Source: Candidatus Omnitrophota bacterium (lineage in GTDB: Bacteria > Omnitrophota > Gorgyraeia > Duberdicusellales > 4484-171). From it: a stretch of 64,000 bases of DNA. The notes under the pieces were generated by a model. That model searched no databases. It saw only the letters and a program-made list of their open reading frames with translations, and was not told the DNA's origin. The stretch's first letter is position 1, and every line of letters begins with the position of its first letter. Shown here one piece after another: positions 138 through 18,320 of this stretch. The position numbers and the translations under genes are program-made. Where the stretch lies: positions 15,120-79,119 of the forward strand of contig JBAWWL010000006.1 of NCBI GenBank assembly GCA_037146775.1, read 5' to 3'.

Positions 138-581
138 TCACAACTTCACTCCAAACACAATCCTTCCCTCCGCCACGACTTCGTCCTTTACCAAGGCTAC
201 TGCTCGCACAATACCGGCGTTTCCAATAATTTTATCTTCATGCACTTGGAGTATCAGCTGGTCACCAACCATAACCGGCTTCAAAAACTTCACTTCTACT
301 TTACCTAAAAAATACGTAGGTTTCTTTGCGGCAATTTCCGGCTTCAAGGCAGCAAAACCTATAATACTGGCCTGAGCCATAGCTTCAATAATAATCACGC
401 CGGGAAGAATAGGCTTATCGGGAAAATGGCCGACAAAAAAGTAATCGTTAATGGTAACGTTTTTAAGGCAGGTAATCTTTTTCTCTTGCGGATTTATATC
501 CAAAACTTTATCGATGAAAAGGAATGGATATTTTTGCGGTAAAACTTCTTGAATTTTCTGAATATCCCAGATGCCCTCCAT
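138..581 (-). CDS. fabZ: 3-hydroxyacyl-ACP dehydratase FabZ
   Basis: 147 aa with a hot-dog fold and the HFPDKPILPGVIIIEAMAQ active-site region; located between fabG and fabF. Confidence 0.85.
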   Translation of the reverse strand: MEGIWDIQKIQEVLPQKYPFLFIDKVLDINPQEKKITCLKNVTINDYFFVGHFPDKPILPGVIIIEAMAQASIIGFAALKPEIAAKKPTYFLGKVEVKFLKPVMVGDQLILQVHEDKIIGNAGIVRAVALVKDEVVAEGRIVFGVKL

Positions 582-679
582 ATTATTTGTTTAAAAGTTT
601 TTCTGCCATATTGATATTGTTAAAACACCATGCTATTAATGATACTGATAAATTGTTTATTCTTTATCTAAATGCGCAC

Positions 680-1426
680 CTATATCGCCAAACCTCCGTC
701 AATCTTTATAGTTTCTCCGGTAATATAGCTTGCCTGATCCGAAGCAAGAAACACGCACAAGTACGCCACTTCATTCGCTTCGCCCAAACGTTTCTGTGGT
801 ATACTGTTTATAATTTCTTTTTTAAAATCATCCCGCAAACCGCTCACCATATCCGTGTTGATAAAACCCGGACACACCACATTTACCCTCACGCCATACG
901 CAGCCACCTCTTTCGCCAAAGCCTTGGAAAATCCGATAATTCCTGCCTTAGAGGCGCTATAATTAGTCTGGCGCGGTAAACCGGTAATACCACTCACTGA
1001 ACTCATGTTTACGATGCATCCTTTTTTTTGTTTCAAAAAAGTAGTTATAGCCGCTCGGGTCATATTAAAAGTTCCGCCTAAATTGGTATCTACAACTTCT
1101 TTCCAGTCATCCATAGTCATCATCATCAACGCCTTATCTTTAGTTATGCCGGCATTATTCACTAAAATATCCAGATGAGAGAACTGGGCTAAAGCCTTCT
1201 CTACCACCTGGCGGCACTGATTGTAATCTTTAATGTCTGTTTTAATACCGCTACCGCTGGTACCCAACGCCTTAATTTCTTCCTCTAATTTTTTTGCTTC
1301 GGCTTCGCTCTTGTTGTAAGTAAAGACAATCTGCGCTCCGGCCTTAGCAAATTCCAAGCAGCACGCACGCCCGATTCCTCGCGCACCGCCGGTAATGATT
1401 GCGATTTTACCTTTTAAATCAGCCAT
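680..1426 (-). CDS. fabG: 3-oxoacyl-ACP reductase FabG (SDR family)
   Basis: 248 aa; TGGARGIGR Rossmann motif, NNAG and YxxxK SDR motifs; stop codon is TAG. Confidence 0.85.
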   Translation of the reverse strand: MADLKGKIAIITGGARGIGRACCLEFAKAGAQIVFTYNKSEAEAKKLEEEIKALGTSGSGIKTDIKDYNQCRQVVEKALAQFSHLDILVNNAGITKDKALMMMTMDDWKEVVDTNLGGTFNMTRAAITTFLKQKKGCIVNMSSVSGITGLPRQTNYSASKAGIIGFSKALAKEVAAYGVRVNVVCPGFINTDMVSGLRDDFKKEIINSIPQKRLGEANEVAYLCVFLASDQASYITGETIKIDGGLAI

Positions 1427-1494
1427 AGCTTATAATAACATAATTTATCTAGGTTACAATACTACTTCTGGCCAAAACCTGCCAAACCGCTCGC

Positions 1495-2736
1495 TTAGTT
1501 TTTATCAATGTATTTTTCCAATACGCACGCGCTGTTGTAACCACCCGGGCCGAAAGAAACCACCAATGCCAGCTTAACATCTTTCTTTTGTGCCTTATTG
1601 GGCACACAATCGATATCGCACTCCGGATCTTTTTCGCCCTGATGTATGGTCGGCGGAACAATTCCATGCTCGAATGCCCCGATGCAGGAAGCAATCTGCA
1701 GGGCTCCTGACGCTGAGAGAGTTTCTGCGGTCATTGATTTTATAGCACTTACCGGAATAGCCTCTAAGGCTTTGCCGAAAATACGCTTTAAAACCTTCAC
1801 CTCGATTTTGTCTAAATCCAGGGATGAATTCGCGCAGCTGGAAATATAATCGATATCTTTCAATCCTACCCCGGCCTCATCCAGCGCTGCCCGGATTGAC
1901 TTCTCGATACCTTCCCCTTGAGAATGTATTCTTCCAATCTTGACACCGTCGAAGCAACTTGCGACGCTACGCACCCTTGCAAAAATAGAAGCTCCTCTTG
2001 AATATGCGGTTTCCCGGTTTTCCAGACAAAACATACCGGCAGCCTCTCCCAAAATCGGCCCATTTCTGCGTTTATCGAAAGGACAGCTTAAGGCTGCGCC
2101 CTTAATCCCAGCCATATATCCCACTTTATGAAAACCAAAGAATAAGCTAAGATCAAGGGCCTCTACCGCTCCGACAAGCGCTATCTTGGCTTTGCCGGTA
2201 GACAAAACCGTAAGAGCGTACCGTAAGGCTTCCAATCCTGCGGTATATCCGGTAGCAAGAGAAACATTAAATCCCTGAATATTAAAACGGATAGAAACCT
2301 GAGATGACGCAGCGTTAAGAACGGTTGAAGGAAAAAGCGCCGGATTAGAAAACTCAAGGCCATCCTTGATCACTTCCCTGTCAAACTTGATCATCGCCCA
2401 AAGGTGAGGAAAAGTCGTACCAGTACTCACGCCAATATCGTCGGTATTTGCTTCGGTAATCTCTAATTTTGCTTCGTCCAATACCTGCTTGGCAGCGCAC
2501 ATCAAGAAAAGCCCGCTTCTATCTATGTTGCGTAAACCTTTTGGCCCAAGATATATTTTTGGATCAAAATTTTTGAGTTCCGCAGCCACGTTGACCGAGA
2601 ACTTTTCGGTAGGAAAAGATTCGATTTTTGAGACAGAGCTCACACCTTCTTCTATGCTTTTCCAGAAAAGCTCTTTACCTATACCATTAGGGCTCACCAC
2701 CCCGATACCAGTGATAAAGAATTCTTTATTTTGCAT
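1495..2736 (-). CDS. Ketosynthase (FabF/FabB)-like protein lacking the Cys-His-His catalytic triad
   Basis: Thiolase-fold KAS homologue. The active-site region reads SLATGYTAG where TACTSG is expected (no Cys), and the His motifs read SSCANSS and KSMTAETL (no His). Start is probably the MQNKEFFITGIG methionine; the maximal ORF runs to 2799. Confidence 0.7.
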   Translation of the reverse strand: MQNKEFFITGIGVVSPNGIGKELFWKSIEEGVSSVSKIESFPTEKFSVNVAAELKNFDPKIYLGPKGLRNIDRSGLFLMCAAKQVLDEAKLEITEANTDDIGVSTGTTFPHLWAMIKFDREVIKDGLEFSNPALFPSTVLNAASSQVSIRFNIQGFNVSLATGYTAGLEALRYALTVLSTGKAKIALVGAVEALDLSLFFGFHKVGYMAGIKGAALSCPFDKRRNGPILGEAAGMFCLENRETAYSRGASIFARVRSVASCFDGVKIGRIHSQGEGIEKSIRAALDEAGVGLKDIDYISSCANSSLDLDKIEVKVLKRIFGKALEAIPVSAIKSMTAETLSASGALQIASCIGAFEHGIVPPTIHQGEKDPECDIDCVPNKAQKKDVKLALVVSFGPGGYNSACVLEKYIDKN

Positions 2737-2932
2737 CTTTATTATTGTAACTGAAATATTAATTTTGTAAACCCCATCATTGCATCGGGTTGGGCACATA
2801 TAAAGAAGGAACTGTCGCCTTTTAAACTCCGGAAACCGCTACCAGGCAAATAAACATTATGAAAACGCTTTCAGGATACACCCTCTATACCCTTGCAGCA
2901 CTGTAAAGAAAAATGTTATCTTTTCAATGAGG

Positions 2933-2993
2933 GCTCTCTTCGGAGAGCTAAAGCCACGGACCCTCTCCCTATCAAGGGGGAGGGGTTTTTTTT
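2933..2993 (+). terminator. Orphan intrinsic terminator or small-RNA 3' end
   Basis: Hairpin GCUCUC-UUCG-GAGAGC at 2933-2948 with a UUCG tetraloop, then a 9-bp stem CCCTCTCCC / GGGGGAGGG with loop TATCAA at 2961-2984, then T8 at 2986-2993. No plus-strand gene lies upstream. Confidence 0.5.
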
Positions 2994-3202
2994 ATAGAAA
3001 ACTAAGCCTGATAAGGGTTTATGGCAGGCCGAAACTGTACGGCATTGGAACCGCAATTATCGCTTTTCTAAAGGCAAACAGAATCAGGACATATTACCCA
3101 AAGACATAGGATACGGGAGGATTAATAAACCGCTACTAAACCGGTATTTTAAAGGACCGGAATATCGCATATAGCTGCCAGGGAAATAAAACAAAAAATG
3201 CT

Positions 3203-4975
3203 TTAAACTTGAAATAACTTACGCAGATGTTCGGCTTTCAACTCTCTTAAAGCCTGACGAATCAATTTTTTGTTGGAGGGATTTTTGTATTGAATAAGCG
3301 CGCGCTGCATTTGTCTTTCCCGAAACGTTTTTGCCGTATACACTAGCTGCCCGGTAAAAGGATCCTTGCCGGTATAATACATACAGCCGGCAAGAGTCAT
3401 CGGCAAAGGAATAAAATCCTGGATTTGTTCAGGATAAATATGGCGCCGTATAAGATAAAGACCAAGCTTAAGCGCATCCTCTAAGCGCGCGCCCGGATGT
3501 GCGACAATGAAGTATCTTACCAAATAAAGCTCTTTTTTGACTTTAGCGTTCATTTTACCGAAAGCAGCGGCAAACCGTTCGTACGAGCCGCTATCGGATT
3601 TATTCATTACCTTTAGCACACTGTCCACCGCATGTTCCGGGGCAACCTTCATTTGACCACTGATATGAAACCTACACAGCTCTTCGAGATAGTTTTCGGC
3701 AGACTGGTCGGCCAGCAAATCATAACGGAAACCGCTGCCGACAAAAAGATGTTTTACTTTTGGAATTTGACGAATCATTCTGTAAAGAGCTGTGGTTTGC
3801 TGATAGCCAAGATTAAGATCTTTGCATTTTGTGGGCAAGAGACAATTCTTATTTTCGCAAAAACCTCGTTTTCCCCATACATTACAGCTTGCCCGGTACA
3901 GATTGGCGGTAGGACCGCCGATATCGCTGATAGTGCCCTTAAAGTCGCTTTGCTCGGCAAGTATTCTTGCTTCCTTCACAATCGAAGCGGGACTTCTGCT
4001 TTGTACGATCCTGCCCTGATGGAAATAAAGCGAGCAAAAGCTGCATTCGCCGCAACAGCCGCGGTGAGAAATAATCGAAAATTTAACCGTTTCAAACCCC
4101 TTCAAACCGCCGGCCGCAGCATAAACCGGATGACACTTACGGCTGTACGGCAATTCATAAATTTTATCCAGCTGTTCTGCCTCAAGCGGCAGCGCCGGTG
4201 GCTGCTGGATAACAAATCTGTCAGCGTGGCGCTGCGCAACTTTCTTTGCCGCAAAAGGATTCATCTCCCGATAGATCATCTTAAATGCTTGATTGAATTT
4301 TTCTTTGTCGGCCTTGATGTCTTCAAAGGAAGGAATTTCCACACAATCGGATAGTTTTTCAACCTCTTTTCCGATAGTAACCGTTCCCCGGATCGAGGCC
4401 ATAGCAATATCCCGGCCTCCCTCAAGATATCGAGCAATTTCCACCACCTGCGTCTCTGCCATGCCATAAGCAAGAATATCCGCTTTGGCGTCAACCAAAA
4501 GAGAACGCCTGATACAATCATCCCAATAATCATAATGAGCGAGCCGACGCAAACTCGCCTCGATACCGCCCAAAACTATCGTAATGTCACCAAAAGCTTC
4601 TCTGACTCTGTTAGCGTACACAAGTATTGCCCGGTCAGGCCGCAATCCGGCTCTGCCACCGGGAGAATAATCATCGCCATGCCGTAATTTTTTGTTGGCA
4701 GTATAGTTGGCAACCATAGAATCGGTATTACCGGAAGTGATACCGAAGAATAAACGCGGCCGGCCTAAACGCGCAAAATCATCCTTACTGCGCCAGTTAG
4801 GCTGGCTGATAATTCCCACCTTATACCCTTCCCTCTCCAAGACACGGCTGATGACCGCAGTACCGTAAGAAGGGTGATCAACGTACGCGTCGCCGGTGAT
4901 CAGAATGATATCCAGTTCTTTCCATCCTCTTTTCTTTATGTCTTGGGCCGAGATAGGTAAAAAATTATCGCGCAT
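3203..4975 (-). CDS. ygiQ: YgiQ-family radical SAM protein (UPF0313)
   Basis: 590 aa; radical-SAM cysteine cluster HRGCCGECSFCS; conserved YgiQ N-terminal domain (ITGDAYVDHPSYG). Confidence 0.8.
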   Translation of the reverse strand: MRDNFLPISAQDIKKRGWKELDIILITGDAYVDHPSYGTAVISRVLEREGYKVGIISQPNWRSKDDFARLGRPRLFFGITSGNTDSMVANYTANKKLRHGDDYSPGGRAGLRPDRAILVYANRVREAFGDITIVLGGIEASLRRLAHYDYWDDCIRRSLLVDAKADILAYGMAETQVVEIARYLEGGRDIAMASIRGTVTIGKEVEKLSDCVEIPSFEDIKADKEKFNQAFKMIYREMNPFAAKKVAQRHADRFVIQQPPALPLEAEQLDKIYELPYSRKCHPVYAAAGGLKGFETVKFSIISHRGCCGECSFCSLYFHQGRIVQSRSPASIVKEARILAEQSDFKGTISDIGGPTANLYRASCNVWGKRGFCENKNCLLPTKCKDLNLGYQQTTALYRMIRQIPKVKHLFVGSGFRYDLLADQSAENYLEELCRFHISGQMKVAPEHAVDSVLKVMNKSDSGSYERFAAAFGKMNAKVKKELYLVRYFIVAHPGARLEDALKLGLYLIRRHIYPEQIQDFIPLPMTLAGCMYYTGKDPFTGQLVYTAKTFRERQMQRALIQYKNPSNKKLIRQALRELKAEHLRKLFQV

Positions 4976-5001
4976 ATTTAAGAATATTACGGATGAGAAA
5001 C

Positions 5002-5700
5002 TTATTTCTTGAAAGGCGAGTTGACCATATGTATTTTTATAGCCTTAACGGAAAATATCCAACATAGGACAAAAACAAGTAACATCGCACACACCCCAAA
5101 GATTAATCCACTGAAAGCGAAAAAATTGAAAAACCCGTGAGCAAATATCGCTAGCCCCAGGCCAGCATAGATATACCGTCGTTCGTGTTCTTTGCTATCC
5201 GTGAATTTTGCCAAACCCAGGTAATAACCCATAATGACTCCACAAAACGCGTGTAAAGGAACTGATATAAGCGCACGGAAAACTCCGACATTTAACACAC
5301 CAAATAATCCAAAGCGGCCGTAACTGGACAAGAGGTACAGTATATTTTCCAGAGTTGCAAAACCGAGCGAAATCATGACTGCATAGACAATGCCATCGTA
5401 AGGTTCGTTAAATTCATTGCTTCGATATACCAGCGCACGAAAAACCATGAACTTAAGCCCCTCTTCCACTAATGCCGCCACCACAAAAGCCTGCAAGAAA
5501 ATACGTACCACAAATTCATTAATAGCTGCCACAAAGCTCAGCAACGCTACCTCTACCACCATCGCCACAAAAGTTATCATGAATCCGTAAAAAAACGATA
5601 GCGCCAGGAACCGTAGCGGTTCTCTCTCATACTTATCTTTATGGTAGAAATACAACAGTAAGGCAATGACAGGAGCTATGGCCATCAATGCTATGATCAT
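5002..5700 (-). CDS. PrsW-family intramembrane metalloprotease
   Basis: Polytopic membrane protein carrying the EExxK motif (VEEGLKF) and the FxxxH motifs (HAFCG, FAHGFFNF). Confidence 0.65.
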   Translation of the reverse strand: MIIALMAIAPVIALLLYFYHKDKYEREPLRFLALSFFYGFMITFVAMVVEVALLSFVAAINEFVVRIFLQAFVVAALVEEGLKFMVFRALVYRSNEFNEPYDGIVYAVMISLGFATLENILYLLSSYGRFGLFGVLNVGVFRALISVPLHAFCGVIMGYYLGLAKFTDSKEHERRYIYAGLGLAIFAHGFFNFFAFSGLIFGVCAMLLVFVLCWIFSVKAIKIHMVNSPFKK

Positions 5701-5799
5701 ATTACCCTCCGAAAAGCAAATTTTAACATACGCGTATGCTTACGCAATGTTTCTTTTGATTGAATGTTCTCGACCGTCACGAATATGCTATAATAATAA

Positions 5800-7083
5800 T
5801 TGCCTATGCAAGCAACCATTAAAAAAATCGTCTATCCCGGGAAGAGTCTCTGCGTGTCCGGAGGAAAAGTAATTTTTACCGACGAAGGCCTCCCCAACGA
5901 ACTGGTGAAGCTGGATATACGCAGTCAGAAATCAAATTATACAAGAGCCCAAACATGCCAAGTTTTAAAAGCTTCTCCGTGGCGCGCACACACACGCTGC
6001 GACCATTATAAAGTGTGTTCTCCCTACCAATACATCAACTACCCATTCCAGCTGCACATAAAACAAGAACAGCTCGCAGAAATTTTTCTGCGCACACTTA
6101 AAATAAAAAACGAAAACATAGAGATAAAAGCGTCTCCACGAATATGGGGGTATAGAAATAAGGTACATTTGCATGTGCGTTGGCAGAAAAAAACCGCAAG
6201 TCTCGCCTACCATCTGCCGGAAATAAATGACCGGTTCATACACATAACCTGCTGTTTTCTGATATCCGAAGAAATGAACCGGCTGGCACAAGCAATACTC
6301 GCAATAATATCGCGCCACGAAGAAAGCGCGATACAAGAAATTGGGATAAAAGAAAGCTCGTCAAAAAAAGAGTTACTTCTTGTCCTCTATGCGGATTCGT
6401 CTCGTTTAACGCAAAAATTTTTGGATAGCGTAATCGAGCTGCCCAAAACTTTTTCCATAGAGGGCATCATAGGTATTACCGGCGGAAACAAAGCAAGAAA
6501 AGAAAATTTGATTTGGGGAAAAAGTTATATCGAAGAAAAAATTGAAGGATACATGTTCCGTATCGGTGCGCAATCATTTTTCCAGGTCAACACCGCAATG
6601 CTTACCACCATGTGTAACGATATAGCTCAAAGTACACATTTTAACGCGGGAGAAACTATTGCCGATCTTTACTGTGGGGTAGGAACTTTTGGTATTCTTC
6701 TTGCAAAAAAAGTATGCCGGGTAATCGGCATAGAGGCTAGCCGGGAAAATACGCTCCTCTTAGAGCAAAACTTAAAAATAAACCATATCGAAAATTTTAC
6801 CGTTTACAATGAATACAGTGAAACATGGTTCAGAAAACGGGTAAAAGAACCTGCGGATACGCTGATCATAGACCCTCCGCGCAAAGGCATCGGAAAAGAA
6901 ATCTGCGAACACCTGCTTAAATATTCCTGTCAGCGTATTATATATATCTCTTGCGACCCTGCCACACTGCTGCGAGATCTAAAAATATTGCTGGCCGGTT
7001 ATAGCCTCGAACGTATAACCGGTTATGATTTTTTTCCGCATACACCGCACATCGAAACCTGCACTTTGCTCGTTAAAAAATAA
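5800..7083 (+). CDS. rlmD: 23S rRNA (uracil-C5)-methyltransferase, RlmD/RumA/TrmA family
   Basis: N-terminal TRAM-like domain; SAM-binding motif DLYCGVGTFG; IIDPPRKG; catalytic Cys region ISCDPATLLRDL. Confidence 0.8.
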   Translation: MPMQATIKKIVYPGKSLCVSGGKVIFTDEGLPNELVKLDIRSQKSNYTRAQTCQVLKASPWRAHTRCDHYKVCSPYQYINYPFQLHIKQEQLAEIFLRTLKIKNENIEIKASPRIWGYRNKVHLHVRWQKKTASLAYHLPEINDRFIHITCCFLISEEMNRLAQAILAIISRHEESAIQEIGIKESSSKKELLLVLYADSSRLTQKFLDSVIELPKTFSIEGIIGITGGNKARKENLIWGKSYIEEKIEGYMFRIGAQSFFQVNTAMLTTMCNDIAQSTHFNAGETIADLYCGVGTFGILLAKKVCRVIGIEASRENTLLLEQNLKINHIENFTVYNEYSETWFRKRVKEPADTLIIDPPRKGIGKEICEHLLKYSCQRIIYISCDPATLLRDLKILLAGYSLERITGYDFFPHTPHIETCTLLVKK

Positions 7084-7127
7084 AATACCACAGCCCAAAC
7101 AAAAAACCAATAACCCGGCAATCGGGA

Positions 7128-8348
7128 TCAAAGATGTTTTAAAAAGGCAGTAACGGCAGTAATATCGGAAGTTTTAAGAAAAGTGCTGGTAGATAAAGTC
7201 AGATGCCCTTCGGCAATAAAACGGCCATTAGGAGAATCACCGGAAGGAATAAAATCTTTCAGATAATCGTAATCACCAATCGAGAAAGCATAGAGCTGCG
7301 ATACGCCCAACCCGCGATTTTCAAGCGCTGTATACGCCCGGTTTCTTAACTCAGGGTCATCGAACAGAAGCACAAGAAAGGGGTATGTCGCCCTATCACC
7401 CGCTGATTCCTGGATAATTCTAATACCGTTTACACCGACCAACTCATTAAAGTAGCATTGTGCCTTTAGCCTTTGCGCCTCTATCTCTGTCTCTAAGCGT
7501 TCAAAGCAAATATGGGCTATCCGTTTTCTAAAACCGGAAACACGATGGGTGGGAAAATTTACTTCATACTCCTCACGAAGCCCTCGTAAACGATTTCCCC
7601 GTAGATTCCAAAAAAGTTCAGGAAGCCGAAAAACAAACCAGAACAAGAACGGCCGATAAAACATTGCGTAGCCGAGTAATTCAGAAATTTTCAGGCTTTC
7701 GGATAAAAAATCATTTTTTACCAAGCTTCGGCACGTATGCTCAATATTGTCGGCATAAATATTATTATTGGCGACGACAACTCCCCCCTCATAAGTCGTC
7801 AGCCCCTTGCCGCGGCAGAGGCTAAAAAAAGAAAAATCACTGAAGCTGCCGATTTTTTTTCCCCGAAAACTTGCGCCCAGCGACTGAGCGCAATCTTCGA
7901 CGACAAAAAGCTTATAGGTATGCGCGATATTCTCGATTATTTCAAGATTTACCGCGATACCCGCCAGATGAACCGCAATAATAGCCAGGATATCATTGGA
8001 TTGGGCACAAAGATTATCTAAGGCGGTAGGATTAAAATTGAAATCATATTGGTTGATATCACACACCGCAACCTTAAGTCCTGCTCGCTGTATCGCCAAA
8101 GGAACAAGCGGACAGACATAGGAAGGTATAATAACTGTTTTTTTAGATGAGAGCCTTTTCAGGGACTCTAAAATAAAGTATAGGGCAGCAGTTCCCGAAT
8201 AAGTTACCTTCGCATGATTTGCTTTCAGATAATGCTCAAAATCTGCCTCCAAAGAACCTCGATAGCTTCGGGGATCACATAGAGCGAGCACCTCTCTTAG
8301 AGCGATGGGAAAACCGGCAGTAGGAGGAATTTCTCTAAATATGGCCAT
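7128..8348 (-). CDS. DegT/DnrJ/EryC1/StrS (ArnB-like) PLP-dependent sugar aminotransferase
   Basis: 406 aa with DegT-family architecture; the PLP-lysine region reads SLCRGKGLTTYEGG. Confidence 0.8.
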   Translation of the reverse strand: MAIFREIPPTAGFPIALREVLALCDPRSYRGSLEADFEHYLKANHAKVTYSGTAALYFILESLKRLSSKKTVIIPSYVCPLVPLAIQRAGLKVAVCDINQYDFNFNPTALDNLCAQSNDILAIIAVHLAGIAVNLEIIENIAHTYKLFVVEDCAQSLGASFRGKKIGSFSDFSFFSLCRGKGLTTYEGGVVVANNNIYADNIEHTCRSLVKNDFLSESLKISELLGYAMFYRPFLFWFVFRLPELFWNLRGNRLRGLREEYEVNFPTHRVSGFRKRIAHICFERLETEIEAQRLKAQCYFNELVGVNGIRIIQESAGDRATYPFLVLLFDDPELRNRAYTALENRGLGVSQLYAFSIGDYDYLKDFIPSGDSPNGRFIAEGHLTLSTSTFLKTSDITAVTAFLKHL

Positions 8349-8420
8349 AAATATTTATTTGTAATTGCTATTGGCTAATTTTATGCTAAAATCAATTTTC
8401 AAGCAAGATATTTTGCTCAT

Positions 8421-8831
8421 ATGTTTAAAAAAAGAATTACTCTTAAAATTCTTCTGTTTCTAATTGCCTCGGATATATTAGAAACCTGCACTCATTATTG
8501 CTTTAAAAAAAGTACTTTACCGGTCAGTGAGATTACCATTAACGGCTTTTCTTCTGCGGTTTCTTTTTTTCGTATTGTAGTTTTTTCTCCTTTTTTATGG
8601 TTAGGATTTCTTTTTGTCGGCTTGACTTTCGTGGTCTGGTCAACGATTCTTTCTAAAATAGATTTAAGCGTCGCGGTCCCGGCAGCCAGTTTCAGCTATA
8701 TATTGGTTCCTCTTGTCTCGATAGTATTCCTACACGAACAGATAGACACACTCAGATGGTGCGGCATCGCGATGATATTGCTGGGTATTATTTTTGCCTC
8801 CATAAGCAGCAAGGAAAAACGAATAGTCTGA
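8421..8831 (+). CDS. Small 4-TM EamA/SMR-like membrane protein, ArnE-like flippase subunit
   Basis: 136 aa, hydrophobic. The C-terminal HEQIDTLRWCGIAMILLGIIF resembles ArnE. It is paired with a second small membrane protein 1 nt downstream. Confidence 0.5.
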   Translation: MFKKRITLKILLFLIASDILETCTHYCFKKSTLPVSEITINGFSSAVSFFRIVVFSPFLWLGFLFVGLTFVVWSTILSKIDLSVAVPAASFSYILVPLVSIVFLHEQIDTLRWCGIAMILLGIIFASISSKEKRIV

Positions 8832-8832
8832 T

Positions 8833-9219
8833 ATGTATTCCAGTATATTTTTTCTTTTAGGGCTCATAGCGCTGGCGGATGTTTTTGACACCACGAGAGA
8901 GCTCTGCCTTAAATCAGCGATAAATTCCTTAGACGGCTATTCCCCCAATACCATCAAGAAGGTGTTACAGTTTGTCTGGACACTTGTTCGTCTACCGAAG
9001 GTATGGATAAGTTTTCTGTGCAGCGTCCTTTCTCTTTTTCTTTATCTCTTCGTCCTATCCAAAGCTGACTTAAGCGTTGCCTTCGCCCTTGACAGCATGC
9101 ATTATATATTTATTGCTTTTGCCGCTAAATGGGTGCTGAAAGAAAAATTCGGCGTTATGCGCTGGATGGGAACAATTTGTGTAGCGATCGGTATAACGCT
9201 GGTAAGCTTCAGCCACTAA
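8833..9219 (+). CDS. Small 4-TM EamA/SMR-like membrane protein, ArnF-like flippase subunit
   Basis: 128 aa hydrophobic protein forming a tandem pair with the preceding ORF; divergent from the DegT gene. Confidence 0.5.
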   Translation: MYSSIFFLLGLIALADVFDTTRELCLKSAINSLDGYSPNTIKKVLQFVWTLVRLPKVWISFLCSVLSLFLYLFVLSKADLSVAFALDSMHYIFIAFAAKWVLKEKFGVMRWMGTICVAIGITLVSFSH

Positions 9220-10733
9220 TGAAGTTCTGATTTCAGAAATTCTAACGCTAAATCAGCCGCATCAAGGCCGGAAAGAAAACAGGCGTGCACGCCGGCACCG
9301 GGACGCGTCCAGGCTCCTGTCAAAAAAAGCCCTTCCACTTTTGTTTCTTGACTTAAACGATTAATGCCCGACTGTTTAACGGTTTGCGCAAAACCATAAA
9401 TTGTTCCTTGCGGCGATAAGGTAAAACGCTCCATGGTACGCGGAGTAGCTATTTCTTTTATTTCGATAGAGCCGGAAAGACCGGGAAGGTAACGTTCGGC
9501 ACGCCTAATGAGAATATCCGCCAAAACAAGTTTTTTCTTTGCATATTCCTCACCGCCCAAGCTCCTCCATCTTTCATAAGTATCGAAGACAATAATTGAA
9601 AGCGTGCCTTTACCCTCGGGGGCAAGGCTTGCATCGAGCTGCGAATGATCCACCATTTCGAAAGGACAATGTTCAAAGTCCTGTTGTGCATAGTAGCTGA
9701 AGTTCTTGTCGTGATCGTAGGTTTCGTTAACGGAAAACATGAAATGATCCATTCCTAATTTTTTCGCGGAAACCTTCAGCCCCAGATACACCTGGAACGC
9801 GGATGTCGATTTTTCCAGCGAAGACAATTTCTTGCGATATCCATTTTTTACCGTATCATCGTCAAGAAGCTCGGTAAGCGTACTTGTGGCGTTCGCGTTG
9901 GAAATAATTGTTTTCGCCGTAAACGTTTCCCCCTTGTCAGTGAGCACCGCACTCACTCTTTTACCTTGTTGAGTAATTATTCTGGTAACGGTCGTATTGT
10001 AGCGTACTTCCGAGCCCTGCTCTCTGATTTTTGCAACCATCGCCTCGAACAATTTACCAACACCCCCTTTTATATAAGCTGTTTTCTCAAAATAATAGCC
10101 GCGAAAACCTAACAAGAAATAAAGTGCAGATAATCTGCTGGGCGCAAGGCCAAAGAAATACCAAAGATTGGCAATAATGCTTCTGAGCTTTTCATCCTGA
10201 ATATGCCTCGCCAGGAACTGGCCCGTAGTTAACCGGGCAACCCGTATAACCTTCAAAGAACGAATCAAAGCAGCCACACATTGCATCCACGAAGTAAATT
10301 GAGATGCGGTAAACCTGTCAAATTGGGCGAAGAATACATCCAGCTCATGGAAAAGTCTGTCGAGATTCTTTATTTCCCGGGGAAAACTGTTTTTGAGGAA
10401 TTCTACAAGGTGTTCGCGGTTAAAATCAACGACAAAGTCGTGCCCAGGATAAATAATACGCAAGAAATCTTTCAATACGATAAAATCTACTGTTTTATCA
10501 ACCCCTGTCTATTCTAAAAAATTTCTTATTTCGCTGCCCGGACAAAGACCATCAACGCAGTGCACCGAAGCCTCAAAAGTAAAACCTTTGCGTTTGAAAG
10601 TAGTAGCAAAACCGCCGGCGAGCGGCTGATGTTCCAAAACCAGAACCCGCTTCCCTTGATCCGAAAGTTCAAGCGCTGCGCTCAAACCGCCAACCCCTGC
10701 GCCGATTACGATAGCATCATATTGCTGCATCAT
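9216..10733 (-). pseudogene. Phytoene-desaturase (CrtI)-family FAD/NAD(P) oxidoreductase interrupted by a single in-frame TAG at 10509-10511
   Basis: N-terminal Rossmann motif YDAIVIGAGVGGLSAA is in the 74-aa ORF (10509-10733). The rest of the protein (9216-10475) is in the same frame. Read-through gives ...EIRNFLE*TGVDKTVDFIVLKDFLRIIYPG... Confidence 0.6.
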
Positions 10734-10735
10734 CG

Positions 10736-11575
10736 CTACGATGAGAGGCGGTTCAGGAAGCTGATCATCGCTTCGACAACCTTATCTCTCTCTTTATCAA
10801 TAGTGATCATGTGGTAACTGTCTTGAAGCAAAACCAGAGATTTATCGGCTGAACCGATATGATCCAGAATGTAGCGGGAATTTTTCGAACTGGTCATGTC
10901 ATCCTCATGCGCATGAAGAAGAAGAATAGGAGTTCTCACCGAAGAAAGTTCTTTTTTTACGACGCGAGCAAAAAGAGTGTGCTGGTAGAGACAGGCAATA
11001 GGAAAAAATGGGCTGCCAAAAAGGACCGAATCATTAGCAGAATGCCCAGCTTGAGGCTTGGTGTATGCACGATGAATATGTTCACGCAGCACCTCATCCT
11101 TTAAACCATAAGGCCAATCCTCCTTAATATTGATCGCGTTACGCAAAAAAGGTATATGCCAAACCAAAGGAAGCAGTGCCTGCCCTTTATGGATCGCCCA
11201 ACCGTCATAAGATATGGTAGGAGCGAGACCGATAAGTCCGCAGATCTGACCCGGCAAAAGATACGAAAGGTGAATTCCCACAAGCGCGCCCATAGAAAGG
11301 CCGGCCACAAATACTTGCGCATGGTCCTTCTGCAGCGCTTTAAAGTCTTCCAGGCATAGCGCAACAATTTCCTGCCAAGTAACTTTTTTGAGCTCACTCA
11401 ATGTGTGACAATGTCGAGGTAATGTATCGCAAAGCACACTATAGCCGGCCTTATTAAGACGCTTGCCGACATAGCGCATCTCAGAAGGAGTGCCGGTAAT
11501 GCCATGAACAAGCAGCACTGCCGTCTTGCTGCCTTTGAGAAAAAAGCTATATTTTTTCGAACCGTTATTCTCCAT
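10736..11575 (-). CDS. Alpha/beta-hydrolase (esterase/lipase fold)
   Basis: GxSxG nucleophile elbow (GLSMG); the HG oxyanion region reads VLLVHGITG. The maximal ORF extends to 11722; the start was chosen at MENNGSKK. Confidence 0.65.
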   Translation of the reverse strand: MENNGSKKYSFFLKGSKTAVLLVHGITGTPSEMRYVGKRLNKAGYSVLCDTLPRHCHTLSELKKVTWQEIVALCLEDFKALQKDHAQVFVAGLSMGALVGIHLSYLLPGQICGLIGLAPTISYDGWAIHKGQALLPLVWHIPFLRNAINIKEDWPYGLKDEVLREHIHRAYTKPQAGHSANDSVLFGSPFFPIACLYQHTLFARVVKKELSSVRTPILLLHAHEDDMTSSKNSRYILDHIGSADKSLVLLQDSYHMITIDKERDKVVEAMISFLNRLSS

Positions 11576-11654
11576 GAATTTTTTATTATACCATAAAAAT
11601 TTTCGGTATAAAGTTTTATTGTAATTACCGAAACCCTCTGTTATAGTATTTTCC

Positions 11655-12827
11655 ATGCTCAAAGATGATGCCATGCTCAACTTTACCGTCACAGACACCC
11701 TCGATAATATACCCCAAAACACCTGGGATCGTCTGTTTGGCTATGACCTTATCGAAAGCTACGGCTATCATAAAACGTTACATGAGGCGAAATTAAACGA
11801 GTTCGCTACCTACTATCTGATAGGAAAAAGGAATGACGCAACAGTAGCGATTATTCCTTTTTTCACGATGGAATTTTCTTTCACTACGCTGATACGCGGC
11901 CCACTGCAACGCATCGTTTTTGGCATACGCAAATTCTACAAAAACTTCCTTACCATGAAAATTGTTTTTATCGGCTCGCCTACTACCGAGTCCTTTCATA
12001 TAGGAGTAGCGGAAACGGAAAATAAAAATTGCATCATCGACCACGCATACAAAAAAATCGAAACATTTTCTCGTACGCACCACATTAACACAATTTTATT
12101 TTATAATCTTACCAACGCGGACCAGTCGCTCATGAAACATCTTTTAAACAACGGTTTCGCAGGGATGGAAGACTTTCCGGGAGCGCGGCTTGAAATACAA
12201 GCAAAATCGTTGGATGAGTATATCGCACATCTTGGTTCTAGCACGCGAAAAGATATACGCCGAAAACTACGTAAATCAACTCAAGCCGCAGTGCTTGAAA
12301 CCGAAATACGAGAAACGGTCGATGGAATAATCGACGATCTCTACAAGCTCTATCTCAATAATTTTAACGAATCAGATATTCATTTCGAAATACTGACTCC
12401 CGAGTTCTTTACCAAGTTATGCCACAACATGCCCGGCATAGTTAAATGTTTTGTTACTCGCCATAACGGAAAAATCGTCGCCTTCAATATGTGTTTCGTG
12501 AAAGGAAACTTCTGTATTGATAAATTTATCGGCCTCGACTACACGGTCGCCCTCCAATACAACCTCTACTACACCACCATTTGCTATAACATTGACTGGT
12601 GTATTAAAAACGGTATACGCTATTATCAGCCGGGCCAGGGCGACTATGACGCAAAAATCAGGCTCGGCGCTAAGCTTATCCCGCTTTATATTTTTATCAA
12701 AAGCTTCAATCCCCTATTGAACTTTTTCATGAAGCCGATCATTCAGCTGACACAGCCGAAAAACTTTGACCCTGCCCTGAAAAACCTCGCTAAATACCGA
12801 AAAGAAGTATTCCTTCGGGAAGGATAG
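11655..12827 (+). CDS. FemAB-like / BioF2-like GNAT-fold acyltransferase (PF04339-like)
   Basis: 390 aa; the N-terminal TWDRLFG...ESYGYHKTLHEA...IPFF pattern matches the FemAB_like family; a basic RKDIRRKLRK segment is present. Confidence 0.55.
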   Translation: MLKDDAMLNFTVTDTLDNIPQNTWDRLFGYDLIESYGYHKTLHEAKLNEFATYYLIGKRNDATVAIIPFFTMEFSFTTLIRGPLQRIVFGIRKFYKNFLTMKIVFIGSPTTESFHIGVAETENKNCIIDHAYKKIETFSRTHHINTILFYNLTNADQSLMKHLLNNGFAGMEDFPGARLEIQAKSLDEYIAHLGSSTRKDIRRKLRKSTQAAVLETEIRETVDGIIDDLYKLYLNNFNESDIHFEILTPEFFTKLCHNMPGIVKCFVTRHNGKIVAFNMCFVKGNFCIDKFIGLDYTVALQYNLYYTTICYNIDWCIKNGIRYYQPGQGDYDAKIRLGAKLIPLYIFIKSFNPLLNFFMKPIIQLTQPKNFDPALKNLAKYRKEVFLREG

Positions 12828-12828
12828 G

Positions 12829-13788
12829 TTAACTCGCTAAAACAGATTGAAGGATTTTTAGGTTGGTAATTTCGTTAAGTGCATTAATACGCTCAAGATC
12901 TTGCGCTAAAAAAGTATTTTTTGGATGATCAAAGAAAGAAATAACGCGTTTAACCAAACTTCTCAGGTAAATCGATGAATATTCTCCGGTAATATCCATT
13001 CCCGCTACATTTTTTTTGCTTTTTAAAATACCGATGGCCGCCAGCAACCAGTCAAGCGGTATAGATCCTTCTTCCCAATTAGTTACCGCGTGAGCTCTCG
13101 TGAGGCAATCTTTGTCGATACTGATATAAATATCATCCGTAGGAATACGGGCCGCCAATTCTTCGAGGAAAGATTCGATACTTTTTTCCGCGAGGTTTTG
13201 CCACTGTATTGTGGAACAAAAATATCCTTTTTTTGTATTGAGACAGCTGACACCATCCAGGGGCCGCAAAAAAACTTTTGCTGGCGGCCGGCTATAGGGG
13301 AAAATCTCGACTTTTCGATTTCTCAAGCCGCAAAAAGACGCGGTCAAAAGACCACGGGTCGACAGATCTTCGCATGACGGTCCAAGCAAAATAACTTTTT
13401 TTACGTTTTCACGGGCAGCTACGGTATTTACCCATGAACCACAGCTTAACTGCGGCGGAAGACCGTCCCAGTCCGGATGATGGTCGAAAACGACAAGGCT
13501 GATCGGCTGAGCAAACTGCGCAAGCAACGCAATAGAAATATGATGAAAATCTCCGGAGCCATACAGAGTAGTGATATTTCTTTCCTGGGGAGATAATTTA
13601 TGTTGCAGACGTTCCAGGCCTTTCCTGTCGGCCCAATAACGCAGGTAAGGAGCTTCAGAGGTACAGTCAACAATCTTTGTGAGAAATGGCGGTACCGAAA
13701 AATCTCTAAGCAGGTTTCGCTGCTTAAGGATGCTGTCGTCAAAATTGAGAATACGGATCTTATTGCGACAAAGTGCTAATGGTGCCAT
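12829..13788 (-). CDS. Arginase/agmatinase/formiminoglutamase-fold metallohydrolase
   Basis: Metal-binding motifs of the ureohydrolase fold: SGDFHHIS, FDHHPDWDG, SIDKDCL. Confidence 0.6.
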   Translation of the reverse strand: MAPLALCRNKIRILNFDDSILKQRNLLRDFSVPPFLTKIVDCTSEAPYLRYWADRKGLERLQHKLSPQERNITTLYGSGDFHHISIALLAQFAQPISLVVFDHHPDWDGLPPQLSCGSWVNTVAARENVKKVILLGPSCEDLSTRGLLTASFCGLRNRKVEIFPYSRPPAKVFLRPLDGVSCLNTKKGYFCSTIQWQNLAEKSIESFLEELAARIPTDDIYISIDKDCLTRAHAVTNWEEGSIPLDWLLAAIGILKSKKNVAGMDITGEYSSIYLRSLVKRVISFFDHPKNTFLAQDLERINALNEITNLKILQSVLAS

Positions 13789-15191
13789 TAAGGCTGTTTT
13801 TTAAGCGCAAGCGTAAGCGCCTCCTCAAAAAGCTCAACTGCCAAGTCCATTTCGCGTTCTGTTATATAAAGAGAGGGCGCGAGAGTAAAAGTATTCTTAT
13901 AGTATCCTCCGACATCCAAAATTAATCCGCGGCGGCTGCCTCCGGCGGATAATTTACCGCTTAAACCAATCTCGCAAATCTTGTCAGTAAGTGCCTTGCT
14001 GGGAGTAAAACCGTCTTTCTCGCACATCTCAATCCGGATTGCCAGCCCTAATCCATTTACGTCACCAATCTGAGGATATTTTTTTTGCAAAGCTTTCAGG
14101 CGCCTAAGAAGATACTTTCCCTTTTCGTTCACTGATGTCTCAAAGTCAGACTCCTCTATGATATTCAAGGTTTCTAGGCCAACGGCAGTACCTAAGGTGT
14201 TCGAGGAGAATGTCGAGTGAGTCGATCCGGGAGGAAATACGTCAGGCGAAATCAATTCTTCCTTAGCCCAGACGCCGCTTAGAGGATTCAGTCCGTTAGT
14301 AAGAGCTTTGCCAAAAACAATAATATCGGGAACGACATCAAAGTTCTCAATAGCCCAGAATTTTCCTGTCCGGTAAAAACCCATCTGTATCTCATCGTCT
14401 ACCAGAAATATATGGTAACGATCGAAAATTTTTTTCATTTCCTTAAAATACTCTTGGGGCGGAATAATATACCCGCCGGTACCCTGCACCGCTTCCACGT
14501 AAAATGCCACAAATTCGCTTTCGTCAACCTTGGAATCATATACCGAATAATATTCGGTTTCAAAAAGTTTTTCGAATTGCTTTACGCAATACAAATCGCA
14601 TTCATCGCGCTCTTTACCATAGAAACACCGGAAACAGTAAGGATACGGAACGAAGAAAGCCCGGTTGGCAAAATGCCCAAAACGGCGGCGGTAGCGATAG
14701 CTGGAAGTAATGGAACTGGCTTCAAGGGTCCTGCCGTGATAACTGCCAAAGAAAGAAAACACCAAGTTCTTGCCTGTAACATTACGGATCAATTTTTGTG
14801 AATCTTCCAACGCCGAGGCTCCGCCGACATTAAAATGGACTCTGCCTTTTGTTTTAAACTTTTTTTCATTGAGCCGGCATAGCTTGGTAGCCAATTCCAC
14901 TTTTTCACGGTGCAAATACTGACAAGCAAGCTGCGGCAATTTATCGATCTGACTCTTTAAAACGTTGTTCAGCCGTTTGTTACCGTAACCGAAATTAGCC
15001 GCGGAATACCACATCTGCAAATCCAGATATTCAACACCTTCTTCGTCGTAAAGATAGATATCTTTTGCCCGTTCGAAGATTTTTGGTTGTTTGGAATAAT
15101 GAACGGTATCGCCCCAGGAACAATACTTCTCTTCCAGCTTCAATAACTCCTGCTGTGATCTCGTCGCAGCTATTTGTTCTTTTACATTCAT
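13788..15191 (-). CDS. Class III PLP-dependent aminotransferase
   Basis: 467 aa; DDEIQMGFYRTGKFWA motif; catalytic Lys region FGKALTNG; glycine-rich GGASALE. Confidence 0.8.
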   Translation of the reverse strand: MNVKEQIAATRSQQELLKLEEKYCSWGDTVHYSKQPKIFERAKDIYLYDEEGVEYLDLQMWYSAANFGYGNKRLNNVLKSQIDKLPQLACQYLHREKVELATKLCRLNEKKFKTKGRVHFNVGGASALEDSQKLIRNVTGKNLVFSFFGSYHGRTLEASSITSSYRYRRRFGHFANRAFFVPYPYCFRCFYGKERDECDLYCVKQFEKLFETEYYSVYDSKVDESEFVAFYVEAVQGTGGYIIPPQEYFKEMKKIFDRYHIFLVDDEIQMGFYRTGKFWAIENFDVVPDIIVFGKALTNGLNPLSGVWAKEELISPDVFPPGSTHSTFSSNTLGTAVGLETLNIIEESDFETSVNEKGKYLLRRLKALQKKYPQIGDVNGLGLAIRIEMCEKDGFTPSKALTDKICEIGLSGKLSAGGSRRGLILDVGGYYKNTFTLAPSLYITEREMDLAVELFEEALTLALKKQP

Positions 15192-15232
15192 CTTCTTGCC
15201 TCCTTATCTAACATAAGGCCCTACCGCCTGCA

Positions 15233-15976
15233 TTAGCTATCCATACTTTTGAGATAGTTGTAAACCGTACCCAAATGCTCGAACGGAACATGCACTCTGT
15301 CGATACGCTTAAAATGATCGAGTAGATTACCCTTAGCGAATACAAGATCGGCGTGCGTAGCGGGACAAATATCCGAGAATCCATCGCCAATATATATCGT
15401 GAACTTTTCGCTTCGGCCATGATTAAAAATATGCGCGCGCTTACAGTTCGCGCACTTAAAACACTGCTTATTGGCGTGAGGAAACATAACACGAAACTTA
15501 TCGCGATCAAAGGTCAGCCGGTTTGAATAAACATCGATACCGTCGATGCCGTTTTTGTCGAGGATATAATTAATAATAAAAGAAAAACTGTCGCTTACAA
15601 TGGCGATTGGGACTTGCCTGCGCTTCAAAAGCTTGAGAAGTTTAGGAAAATAGGCGTCGACTTCTATCTTGGAAAGATAGGTAAGTAAATTTGGCTTGGT
15701 TATTCTTACTAAATTCATCTGTCCTTTAAGGCATTCCCGGGAACCAATTTTACCCTCCCGCCACTTCTCTTCAATTACCACCCATTCTTCGTTCATAGAA
15801 AAACGCTTGATGATATCGTCCAGCACGTCGAACGAAGTAATGGTATTGTCAAAATCGAAGAAAACCTTAGATCGAGAAAGGCAAATATGCTTACCTGCAG
15901 CCGCAGTTTCGCAAAAAACACTTTTTGGTTTCTCTCTGTGGCTTTTCCTTTTTGGCATTAATACGCTGCTTTTCAT
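15233..15976 (-). CDS. HAD-superfamily phosphatase (HAD-IB, PSP/MtnX-like)
   Basis: Motif I FFDFDNTIT; motif IV YIGDGFSD. The true start may lie downstream of the annotated Met. Confidence 0.7.
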   Translation of the reverse strand: MKSSVLMPKRKSHREKPKSVFCETAAAGKHICLSRSKVFFDFDNTITSFDVLDDIIKRFSMNEEWVVIEEKWREGKIGSRECLKGQMNLVRITKPNLLTYLSKIEVDAYFPKLLKLLKRRQVPIAIVSDSFSFIINYILDKNGIDGIDVYSNRLTFDRDKFRVMFPHANKQCFKCANCKRAHIFNHGRSEKFTIYIGDGFSDICPATHADLVFAKGNLLDHFKRIDRVHVPFEHLGTVYNYLKSMDS

Positions 15977-16185
15977 TTTCTAAAAAATCCGTTCGCGTAA
16001 CGATATACAAGAAGCAAAATAATTATATACCTTAACCGCGATTATACATACTGGTCATATAGATAGCCGTTTTTTTAAAATCTAAATTTATATTTTAGCA
16101 CTAAAAACCACTTTTTGTAATATTTTTTTAGAAGGCCTGCGCAGGATAAAAAACCGTGCAGATAGACGGCAAACGGATGCGCACA

Positions 16186-16581
16186 TTAGTCGGCAGAAAC
16201 AATCTTCCATGAAGTAAGCCTGTTGGCCCGGTCAAAATAAAGATATATTCTTTCTGAGTTAAAATAATGTGTTGGATGGCGATAAAGCAATACTTGCCGC
16301 AGTGTACCTTCAAAATTCTCTTCTTTCGATAAAATCGGCTCGTAATACATTTCAATGATATACCTTTTTAAAATACCTGGCTGTAATTTATTAGATTTCA
16401 CGTCCTGCTGTAATTGATTAAACCCTCGTTCCTGTTTTTTTAAATAACATTCCATATCGTTTTGGCTATCCGCCGCGTTTTGCAAAGTGAGTAATTCGTC
16501 CATATGACTCATCGTAGCGCAGCCGCTGGCAAAGAATATACCGACTATGCTCATTGTTTTCGTATAAAAATTATACGCCAT
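16186..16581 (-). CDS. Hypothetical lipoprotein
   Basis: Signal peptide with lipobox FFASGC; no recognisable domain. Confidence 0.4.
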   Translation of the reverse strand: MAYNFYTKTMSIVGIFFASGCATMSHMDELLTLQNAADSQNDMECYLKKQERGFNQLQQDVKSNKLQPGILKRYIIEMYYEPILSKEENFEGTLRQVLLYRHPTHYFNSERIYLYFDRANRLTSWKIVSAD

Positions 16582-16602
16582 AACAGTCTTTATAATTATC
16601 GG

Positions 16603-17163
16603 TTATTTTTTCTGCCAACTATAGCTGTTACCACTATACACTTCAAACCAAGAACCGCCGGGTGCACGTTTGTAGTCATCATCAAAAAACATCTTTCTCA
16701 CCTCTTGAATACCCACACCGTTTTTCGTGGCAGTTGCCTGATAAATAGTATCCCGGTCTTGATTTTCTGCCCTCAACGCCTCCTGAACCTTTGATTGCTC
16801 GTCGGCAGGCATATTTTTAGAAACTATTTCTAAATCAGCATTTTTATTTTCACCGATATATTCCTTTTTAAAATATTCGGTTATCGTGTCTTTGCGCACT
16901 CTGCGGCGTTCAATCGCGGACGAAAGCCCCGAAGAAGATTCCTGGGCATACACGGCTTCAATAAACAGAATCGCATTCATCTGTTTTTCTTTGGCGGTAC
17001 CGTAAATCTGATCCTGGATAGACTCGACATCCTTTGCCACATGCTGATAGACGTCAACCCGCATATTAATATCTACCTGTAGCGGCTTTGCGGTTTGCAG
17101 ATTAACCTTGGCACAGCCTATCATCACGATAGACACGATAAACAAGGAAATAATTATCTTCAT
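16603..17163 (-). CDS. Lipoprotein, possible YnbE-like/YdbL-like (DUF1318) fusion
   Basis: Lipobox VMIGC; the N-terminal ...INMRVDVYQHVAKDVE resembles the YnbE lipoprotein motif; located downstream of a YdbH-like gene. Confidence 0.4.
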   Translation of the reverse strand: MKIIISLFIVSIVMIGCAKVNLQTAKPLQVDINMRVDVYQHVAKDVESIQDQIYGTAKEKQMNAILFIEAVYAQESSSGLSSAIERRRVRKDTITEYFKKEYIGENKNADLEIVSKNMPADEQSKVQEALRAENQDRDTIYQATATKNGVGIQEVRKMFFDDDYKRAPGGSWFEVYSGNSYSWQKK

Positions 17164-18308
17164 TGCAAACCTCCTGCGCTATTATGAAAATTAATTGTAA
17201 CGCTTCTTTTACCCATACTTTCCGAAAAGAAATTCATCTCGAGGCTAACTGCGTCTTTGCCCTGACCTATATGCACAACTCCTTTATTATACTCATAATT
17301 TTTAAGATTATCAACTAAGGCATCATATGAAGTTTGATCAAGATAACCGCGTAAAAATTCAAGTGATGCCTCTTTTTTAATATGTATCAATCCGCCGGCC
17401 TGATTAGAAAAATTTCCTTCAAGCTTTTTTAGATTATCGCCCTCGAAACAAAGCGCGAGTGTTCCGTCAAAGCCTCCGGTAATACTAACGTTTTCTTCGC
17501 CGGCGACAAGCGCGACAACATTCTCTAACGACGCCTGCCTGAAACCGACTTGCAAACAGAAATTATTAGCGTTGCGCAGATCAATCTCACCGCTTGCATA
17601 GGCAGAACGGCCAAAAATAATATTCTTTGTTATCGGGAACAATACGCGGTATTTTTCCATCTTGAGAGGAAATACAAGATCATTAAACTCCTTCTGCTTC
17701 AAACGCAGCATAGGTATACGAAATACATAAAGGCCACCTTTTATTTTACGTAAAGTAATATGGTTCGCCTCAACATCGGAAGAATGAATATTGCAATCGG
17801 TGATTTCAAAATGCTCCAAGGTTATACGTTCACGGCCAATATGTGTTCTTAATGAAAATTGTATATCGGCGGCACCAAGACGTTTATCGTTCATACTTAA
17901 TCTTACGTTGCGCAAATCAATGGTTATTGGAACAAGCTGTACACTTATGTTCTGTTTTCCTGTCTTTTTGGCAACATCAACGGAACGTAAGGCCGGAAAA
18001 TTTTTTATTGTGCACGCTGCATCCTGCAAATATAACTTTGATACGCTAAGCCGGGAAATACCGTACAGACGAAACGAAACATAGCCGCTATTAAACGTCA
18101 CTTCAACGATATCGTTGGTGAATGTAAAATCCGTTATCGTAATACCGCTAAAAGAAAGATGTATTTTTTTTATGTTACAGGTAGCCTGAAAGTTTTTAGC
18201 AAGATAACGCGCAAGGTACATACGTAGCAGGTGGTCTTTTAAGAAGAAAAATGCCAGCGTCAGGACAATAACGCAGCACACAAATCCCTTGAGCACTTTT
18301 TTCGCCAT
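17160..18308 (-). CDS. YdbH/AsmA-like membrane-anchored protein (putative intermembrane lipid transport)
   Basis: N-terminal TM anchor and a beta-rich repetitive body; overlaps the downstream lipoprotein gene by 4 nt. Family assignment is tentative. Confidence 0.35.
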   Translation of the reverse strand: MAKKVLKGFVCCVIVLTLAFFFLKDHLLRMYLARYLAKNFQATCNIKKIHLSFSGITITDFTFTNDIVEVTFNSGYVSFRLYGISRLSVSKLYLQDAACTIKNFPALRSVDVAKKTGKQNISVQLVPITIDLRNVRLSMNDKRLGAADIQFSLRTHIGRERITLEHFEITDCNIHSSDVEANHITLRKIKGGLYVFRIPMLRLKQKEFNDLVFPLKMEKYRVLFPITKNIIFGRSAYASGEIDLRNANNFCLQVGFRQASLENVVALVAGEENVSITGGFDGTLALCFEGDNLKKLEGNFSNQAGGLIHIKKEASLEFLRGYLDQTSYDALVDNLKNYEYNKGVVHIGQGKDAVSLEMNFFSESMGKRSVTINFHNSAGGLQ

Positions 18309-18320
18309 AATAGCTCGTCT

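Follow-up and report, generated by a model that had tools for sequence, protein, structure and literature searches.

A conserved CrtI-like FAD oxidoreductase gene in a Candidatus Omnitrophota MAG is split by a single in-frame TAG at codon 75, and an independent assembly of a public sequencing run carries a lysine codon, AAG, at that position on a background that is otherwise identical over 41.9 kb. The gene has no other lesion, and TAG is an ordinary terminator in the surrounding DNA. What looks like recoding is either an ordinary nonsense variant of one base or an error in the MAG consensus, and not the mark of an unusual genetic code. We favor, with a probability of roughly two in three, a scenario in which the TAG is a real AAG-to-TAG loss-of-function allele segregating in the population. 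In such a scenario, a normal and otherwise intact oxidoreductase gene would have been hit by one A-to-T transversion that turned Lys75 into a stop, and the resulting allele would be very recent, residing in a nearly clonal natural population of Omnitrophota that also holds the intact AAG allele. If the allele is real, it offers a snapshot of gene loss under way in such a population. The affected gene encodes a conserved, uncharacterized enzyme linked to lipid and envelope genes, and the biological weight of the case is small; its wider lesson is that a one-base nonsense difference in a MAG consensus can mimic stop-codon recoding.

The gene lies on the minus strand at 9216-10733 of the window, by which we mean the whole 64,000-nt stretch of DNA that was analyzed. 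It translates as 505 codons that share a frame and are interrupted once (...GSEIRNFLE*TGVDKTVDF...), by the TAG at 10509-10511 on the minus strand, which separates 74 codons from 430 without any change of frame. The upstream portion (10512-10733, minus strand) encodes the Rossmann beta-alpha-beta FAD-binding segment, matched by NAD_binding_8 over residues 9 to 74, and the downstream portion (9219-10508, minus strand) encodes the substrate-binding and C-terminal FAD-binding parts, in which every family-invariant residue is intact. The ORF list divides the gene into 10509-10733 (74 aa) and 9216-10475 (419 aa, with a TTG start), and GenBank annotates the two separately as proteins MEI8349650.1 and MEI8349649.1. 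The TTG taken as a start by the ORF callers for the longer product (10473-10475, minus strand) aligns with Leu87 inside the homologs. The gene's own terminator at 9216-9218 (minus strand) is also a TAG and is located where the homologs end; read-through at this point would extend the protein by 37 residues and overlap the convergent EamA gene.

When the stop is written as X, the PF01593 (Amino_oxidase) profile matches residues 15 to 495 over profile positions 2 to 441 of 443, unbroken across the stop, at 1.9e-30 and with a score of 107 bits against a gathering cutoff of 19.8, which places the protein in the superfamily. Homologs of about 500 aa align with the gene over its full length at 51 to 74% identity. 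Because the Pfam match continues across the stop and the homologs align end to end, the two pieces are, on the evidence of the sequence, parts of a single gene with a single lesion and have not arisen as ORFs by chance. The first-pass annotation, which described a CrtI-family gene in one frame interrupted by a single in-frame TAG, was thus correct on this point, and the two GenBank entries are better merged into a single gene that contains an internal stop. The GxGxxG dinucleotide-binding motif (G11-A-G-V-G-G16; 10686-10703, minus strand) is 5' of the stop and so is missing from the 419-aa ORF. In the alignment of homologs, G16 is invariant and conservation reaches at least 90% at G11 and G13; this motif and E34, the acidic residue at the end of beta2, are present, conserved, and upstream of the TAG, which is the signature of the N-terminal beta-alpha-beta unit.

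The oxidoreductase resembles the CrtI/CrtISO/CrtD family (TIGR02734, TIGR02730) in its length of about 500 aa and its N-terminal GxGxxG Rossmann FAD-binding fold, and it aligns end to end with the crtI_fam and carot_isom profiles. Its best relative of solved structure is the CrtI of Pantoea ananatis (PDB 4DGK; E = 1.7e-30, residues 8 to 500 against 5 to 491). It scores under the curated cutoff of every NCBIfam CrtI-type model, however, including the top matches crtI_fam (TIGR02734; 211.8 bits against a cutoff of 238.1), carot_isom (TIGR02730; 201.4 against 586.9), and CrtD (154.6 against 549.7). No carotenoid biosynthesis gene (crtB, crtE, or crtY) occurs among the Pfam-annotated ORFs of the 64-kb window. 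Judged by these profile scores, the protein is a member of the superfamily and not a demonstrated phytoene desaturase or carotenoid isomerase.

A protein search returned 875 homologs. The best 120 of these are mostly 493 to 507 aa long, with two at 484 and 488 aa, and those that carry a source name come from Omnitrophota/Omnitrophica; among these 120, none is split and none is markedly truncated, save for the window's own 419-aa fragment. Comparison with orthologs at the position of the stop, one of the checks proposed in the first-pass annotation, was informative. The nearest ortholog (L002/P0002; 74% amino acid identity, JGI metagenome 3300013138) has the same synteny as the window (hydrolase, oxidoreductase, EamA, EamA, DegT) and reads FLEKTGVDK at the site, where its codons are GAA AAG ACC against GAA TAG ACA in the window. 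One A-to-T transversion on the coding strand, AAG to TAG, accounts for the stop. Across 39 aligned homologs the column is variable (E in 27, D in 5, K, Q, and A in 2 each, and G in 1), and all 39 have a sense codon there; the TAG is conserved in none of them. The rest of the gene shows no decay. It contains no frameshift, the single TAG being its sole lesion, and it retains 60 of the 60 residues that are invariant among the 39 homologs and 81 of the 84 that are conserved at 90% or more. Since all 60 invariant residues are intact, any inactivation would have to be very recent, if the lesion is real.

The decisive comparison is between assemblies. In the GenBank MAG (Candidatus Omnitrophota bacterium), the gene appears on a 158,727-nt contig as adjacent 74-aa and 419-aa proteins. 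A second Candidatus Omnitrophota MAG, GCA_964613555.1, is identical to the window at every position from 6216 to 13475, the TAG included, on contig CAZTHQ010000006.1 (147,708 nt); over 47.6 kb, this contig and the window differ only in a heptanucleotide tandem repeat at 28114-28201, by a 42-nt change in copy number and two mismatches. A different base is found in the Logan contigs, each assembled from one public run; those from run SRR12676968 were located through neighboring proteins. Logan contig 13328 covers window positions 1-10499 with no mismatch, contig 49981 covers 10499-27293 with one mismatch, and contig 46271 covers 28162-42724 with none; the protein lookup returned no Logan contig past 42.7 kb of the window. 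The one mismatch in these 41.9 kb is base 10511, the first base of codon 75, which on the plus strand is A in both the window and GCA_964613555.1 but T in contig SRR12676968_49981. At the site, the latter contig reads ...TTAGAAAAGACAGGGGTTG, and its translation is MMQQ...EIRNFLEKTGV. Because the Logan contigs are identical to the window except at this base, an intact Lys75 allele, as read from these contigs, shares this essentially clonal background. The tally at codon 75 is two different assemblies with TAG and one with AAG.

Other collections had no further copy of this locus. An exact 32-mer that spans the site, with N at the variable base, had no match in genome contigs or metagenome contigs (GTDB representatives and JGI metagenomes), and a protein-guided scan of genome contigs found distant relatives only, at 27 to 46% identity, and no genome of the same species.

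Both the AAG-to-TAG change relative to the ortholog and the one-base difference from the same-strain Logan contig are what a nonsense allele would produce, and the case resembles the nonsense pseudogenes and loss-of-function polymorphisms of other bacteria in its one-base premature stop, its intact allele in the same population, and its lack of further decay, with nothing distinctive to set it apart from them. An assembly, consensus, or sequencing artifact would leave much the same traces. The organism's DNA would then read AAG, the T of the TAG would stem from systematic errors in the reads, from faulty polishing, or from a misresolved graph bubble, and the gene would be intact and functional. 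Such an artifact would explain why an independent assembly of SRR12676968 has AAG on an identical background, why base 10511 is the sole mismatch, and why the rest of the gene is undegraded; a local error would likewise be compatible with a nonsense change as the only difference in 41.9 kb, which counts to that extent against a real allele. Short-read assemblers, however, seldom call a base that none of the reads contain, a point that weighs against an artifact within the limits set by the unstated platform and read sets of the MAGs. The T is moreover common to two assemblies that differ in contig size and in the repeat at 28114-28201, which argues against a one-off assembler glitch, although the two TAG-bearing MAGs may share one read set and hence may not be independent evidence. 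We consider an artifact unlikely, though by no means negligible, and we infer that the TAG is present in the DNA.

The structure of the Logan assembly near the site bears on the same choice. The ends of contigs 49981 and 13328 meet at 10499, where they overlap by 1 nt; this break lies 12 nt from the variable base, suggests a troubled graph region, and is a further counterpoint to a real allele. With about one break per 14 to 17 kb, we estimate the chance of a break so near to 10511 at about 0.2%, and the proximity shows that the read graph is irregular at this spot. At the junction, 10499|10498, 29 31-mers are missing, a pattern that fits a branch or an insertion haplotype between 10499 and 10498. 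A plain SNP bubble does not account for this pattern.

Some of the provenance of the run can be gathered from entries of the Bin Chicken supplement, an excerpt of which places SRR12676968 among ten runs of study SRP284006 and names the third-party coassemblies SRR12676969+70 (metaSPAdes) and SRR12676968+SRR7053514 (MEGAHIT). With ten runs and sibling coassemblies, majority alleles could differ between samples. To judge from a similar ENA accession prefix, GCA_964613555.1 may be one of the Bin Chicken MAGs. The first-pass annotation had offered three explanations for the stop, namely, a recent nonsense mutation, a sequencing or assembly error, and site-specific read-through or recoding, and had held that a sense codon in the reads would expose an assembly error. 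AAG is now found in an assembly of reads (SRR12676968), rather than in the reads themselves, and that expectation is borne out in part. The first two explanations both survive and are not fully separable, as SRR12676968 has AAG and two MAGs have TAG; the third has lost its support.

If the TAG is a real nonsense allele and is read as an ordinary stop, translation would end after 74 residues. The resulting peptide would contain no more of the FAD-binding fold than its first beta-alpha-beta and would presumably be useless alone, and the downstream 430 codons, which encode no GxGxxG, would probably give no active flavoenzyme even with some low-level restart at a TTG. Both fragments are therefore likely to be inactive. 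A functional split gene would require cells to make both the 74-aa and the 419-aa product, the latter from a restart at TTG 10475, and the two to form an active two-piece flavoenzyme. Both pieces are annotated as proteins in GenBank, but the break falls inside an FAD-binding domain region that Pfam matches continuously, no homolog among the best 120 of 875 is split, and one base separates the split from the unsplit allele in the same population. Within 65 codons past the stop, the only in-frame start candidates are two TTG codons (10475 and 10463), with no ATG or GTG, and neither TTG has an upstream Shine-Dalgarno-like motif. This last argument is weak: only 17 of 50 starts in this genome have a motif of this kind, and its absence does not exclude initiation. 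More telling is the lack, in the downstream piece, of G11xGxxG16, E34, and the GGxATT segment, all of them conserved in the family. We find a functional split gene very hard to credit.

Programmed recoding, whether by pyrrolysine, by a suppressor tRNA(CUA), or by stimulated read-through, would yield a full-length enzyme, and we regard it as highly improbable. What speaks for it is that the frame is open after the stop, that the remainder of the gene is intact, and that the genome was inspected only within the 64-kb window, so that pyl genes could lie elsewhere. The likeness to the pyrrolysine UAG of the methylamine methyltransferases mtmB, mtbB, and mttB extends to a single in-frame TAG, in the same frame, in a gene that is otherwise intact. 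In those genes, by contrast, the TAG is conserved in orthologs at an active-site position and pylTSBCD is present, whereas here the position is variable, the orthologs and the sister allele have sense codons, and the window contains no pyl component. An AAG on the same strain background, a variable column with AAG in the nearest ortholog, and the full length of the best 120 of the 875 homologs (the window's own protein aside) all count against recoding. The sister allele by itself answers the question of recoding, and the case shows that independent assemblies of public runs can settle matters of this sort without recourse to the reads.

The use of TAG in the window is equally unfavorable to recoding. 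The stops of 64 long ORFs are TAG in 17, TAA in 35, and TGA in 12, so that TAG, far from being rare or avoided as a terminator, ends 27% of them, this gene included. The first-pass annotation had named fabG as an example of TAG as an ordinary stop, and fabG (680-1426) does end in TAG at the expected C terminus, ...KIDGGLAI*. Bacteria that use pyrrolysine still use TAG as a stop, and avoidance of TAG as a terminator is a softer feature of pyrrolysine recoding than the others. The codon-75 TAG is the only in-frame stop in the window that has long open flanks on both sides and lies inside a single family match; the other such stops on coding strands coincide with listed ORF ends. Genome-wide reassignment of TAG, as a candidate explanation, was rejected on the frequency of TAG as a terminator and on the lack of any other in-frame TAG within one family match.

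The 64-kb window contains no tRNA, no match to an Rfam family, and, among its Pfam-annotated ORFs, no PylS/B/C/D-like family. The 122 nt from the TAG onward fold no better than shuffled sequences (z = +0.77), revealing no stable RNA structure 3' of the stop, and a structure that stimulates read-through was rejected on this result; no Rfam family points to one either. A search for literature linking pyrrolysine, or a stop-codon or code change, to Omnitrophota/Omnitrophica found none, and the literature yielded nothing of relevance on the run or the assembly accession. One could also envision that the TAG allele is real and partly decoded, by near-cognate read-through or by a suppressor or pyrrolysine-type tRNA encoded elsewhere, a combination that we think most doubtful. 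TAG cells would then keep a low and possibly conditional level of full-length enzyme, and the AAG/TAG pair would act as a population-level dimmer switch. Adenine mutagenesis of the DGR type, considered because the change is at an A, was dropped, as the site is a single one in the N-terminal Rossmann region and no reverse transcriptase family occurs among the Pfam-annotated ORFs.

Whatever the status of the TAG allele, the genomic neighborhood offers clues to the role of the oxidoreductase. Immediately upstream, on the same strand, lies an alpha/beta hydrolase gene (Hydrolase_4; 10736-11575, minus strand), whose TAG stop is only 2 nt before the ATG of the oxidoreductase, a spacing that suggests an operon with translational coupling. 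The pair is kept in two relatives, the nearest ortholog's locus (L002) and a 46% identical relative (L012). Taken from GTG 11722, as in the mechanical ORF list, the hydrolase has 328 aa and runs into the start of the divergent FemAB-like gene (11655); the start chosen by gene callers, ATG 11575 (279 aa), removes this overlap. The oxidoreductase is the last gene of its transcription unit, the genes that follow being convergent, and we would therefore expect no polar effect from the TAG. Beyond the hydrolase, the neighbors are two ArnE/ArnF-like EamA genes, a DegT-family aminotransferase, a FemAB-like GNAT, a class-III aminotransferase, and an HAD phosphatase, and KAS, FabG, FabA (ApeI-like), and KAS genes sit at the start of the window and past it.

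In L012, the gene order is KAS-FabG-FabA-KAS-hydrolase-oxidoreductase-PagL. Comparing window positions 138-2799 and 9216-11575 with positions 622-8216 of L012, we observe that the hydrolase/CrtI-like pair is linked in both to a dedicated KAS-FabG-FabA/ApeI-like-KAS set, which in L012 is contiguous and is followed by PagL (lipid A 3-O-deacylase). The hydrolase, the oxidoreductase, and this set look like a conserved, uncharacterized lipid or envelope pathway. Carotenoid CrtI systems differ in this respect, as here the gene adjoins hydrolase, EamA, DegT, and FAS-II-like genes and, in a relative, PagL. An acyl or envelope lipid is a more likely substrate than a carotenoid, and the putative role of the enzyme would be to desaturate, isomerize, or saturate a specialized acyl (fatty-acyl) or envelope lipid. 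A DegT-family aminotransferase gene lies beside two small EamA genes at 7128-9219, the best NCBIfam matches of which are ArnE and ArnF, both below cutoff. ArnE and ArnF are subunits of the undecaprenyl-phosphate aminoarabinose flippase, and the DegT gene with the EamA pair looks like an Arn-like aminosugar-lipid module that is conserved in L002.

Several other features of the window merit mention. A group-4 (Mbh/Hyf-like) membrane-bound NiFe hydrogenase / Mrp-type antiporter cluster spans 24821-35018 and comprises three Proton_antipo_M genes, Oxidored_q3, q2, and q6, the 30-kDa and 49-kDa/NiFeSe subunits, NADHdh, a 4Fe-4S protein, and an HycI protease. Immediately upstream of the cluster, on the same strand, is a gene for a P-type cation ATPase (35011-37617). 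Within the cluster, two heptanucleotide tandem-repeat arrays (GACAGAN / TCTGNCN) in inverted orientation, at 27905-27985 and 28106-28201, lie on either side of the 3' end of the hydrogenase-subunit gene Complex1_30kDa (28083-28643, minus strand); their arms are 74 nt long, 74% complementary, and 138 nt apart. One of the arrays encodes a repetitive charged C-terminal tail (..DRIQMTDDRSQRTEDRGQMTDDRRQRIEDGS..). The 42-nt difference between the two MAG assemblies at these arrays corresponds to a protein of 186 aa in one and 200 aa in the other, and the Logan contigs break there too. Farther along, the stretch immediately upstream of ddl in the dcw cluster is taken up by three consecutive ORFs of 643, 382, and 250 aa (53302-57127), none of which matches a Pfam family at E <= 1e-5, and two Peptidase_MA_2 genes (60212-60997 and 62021-62815) flank murG.
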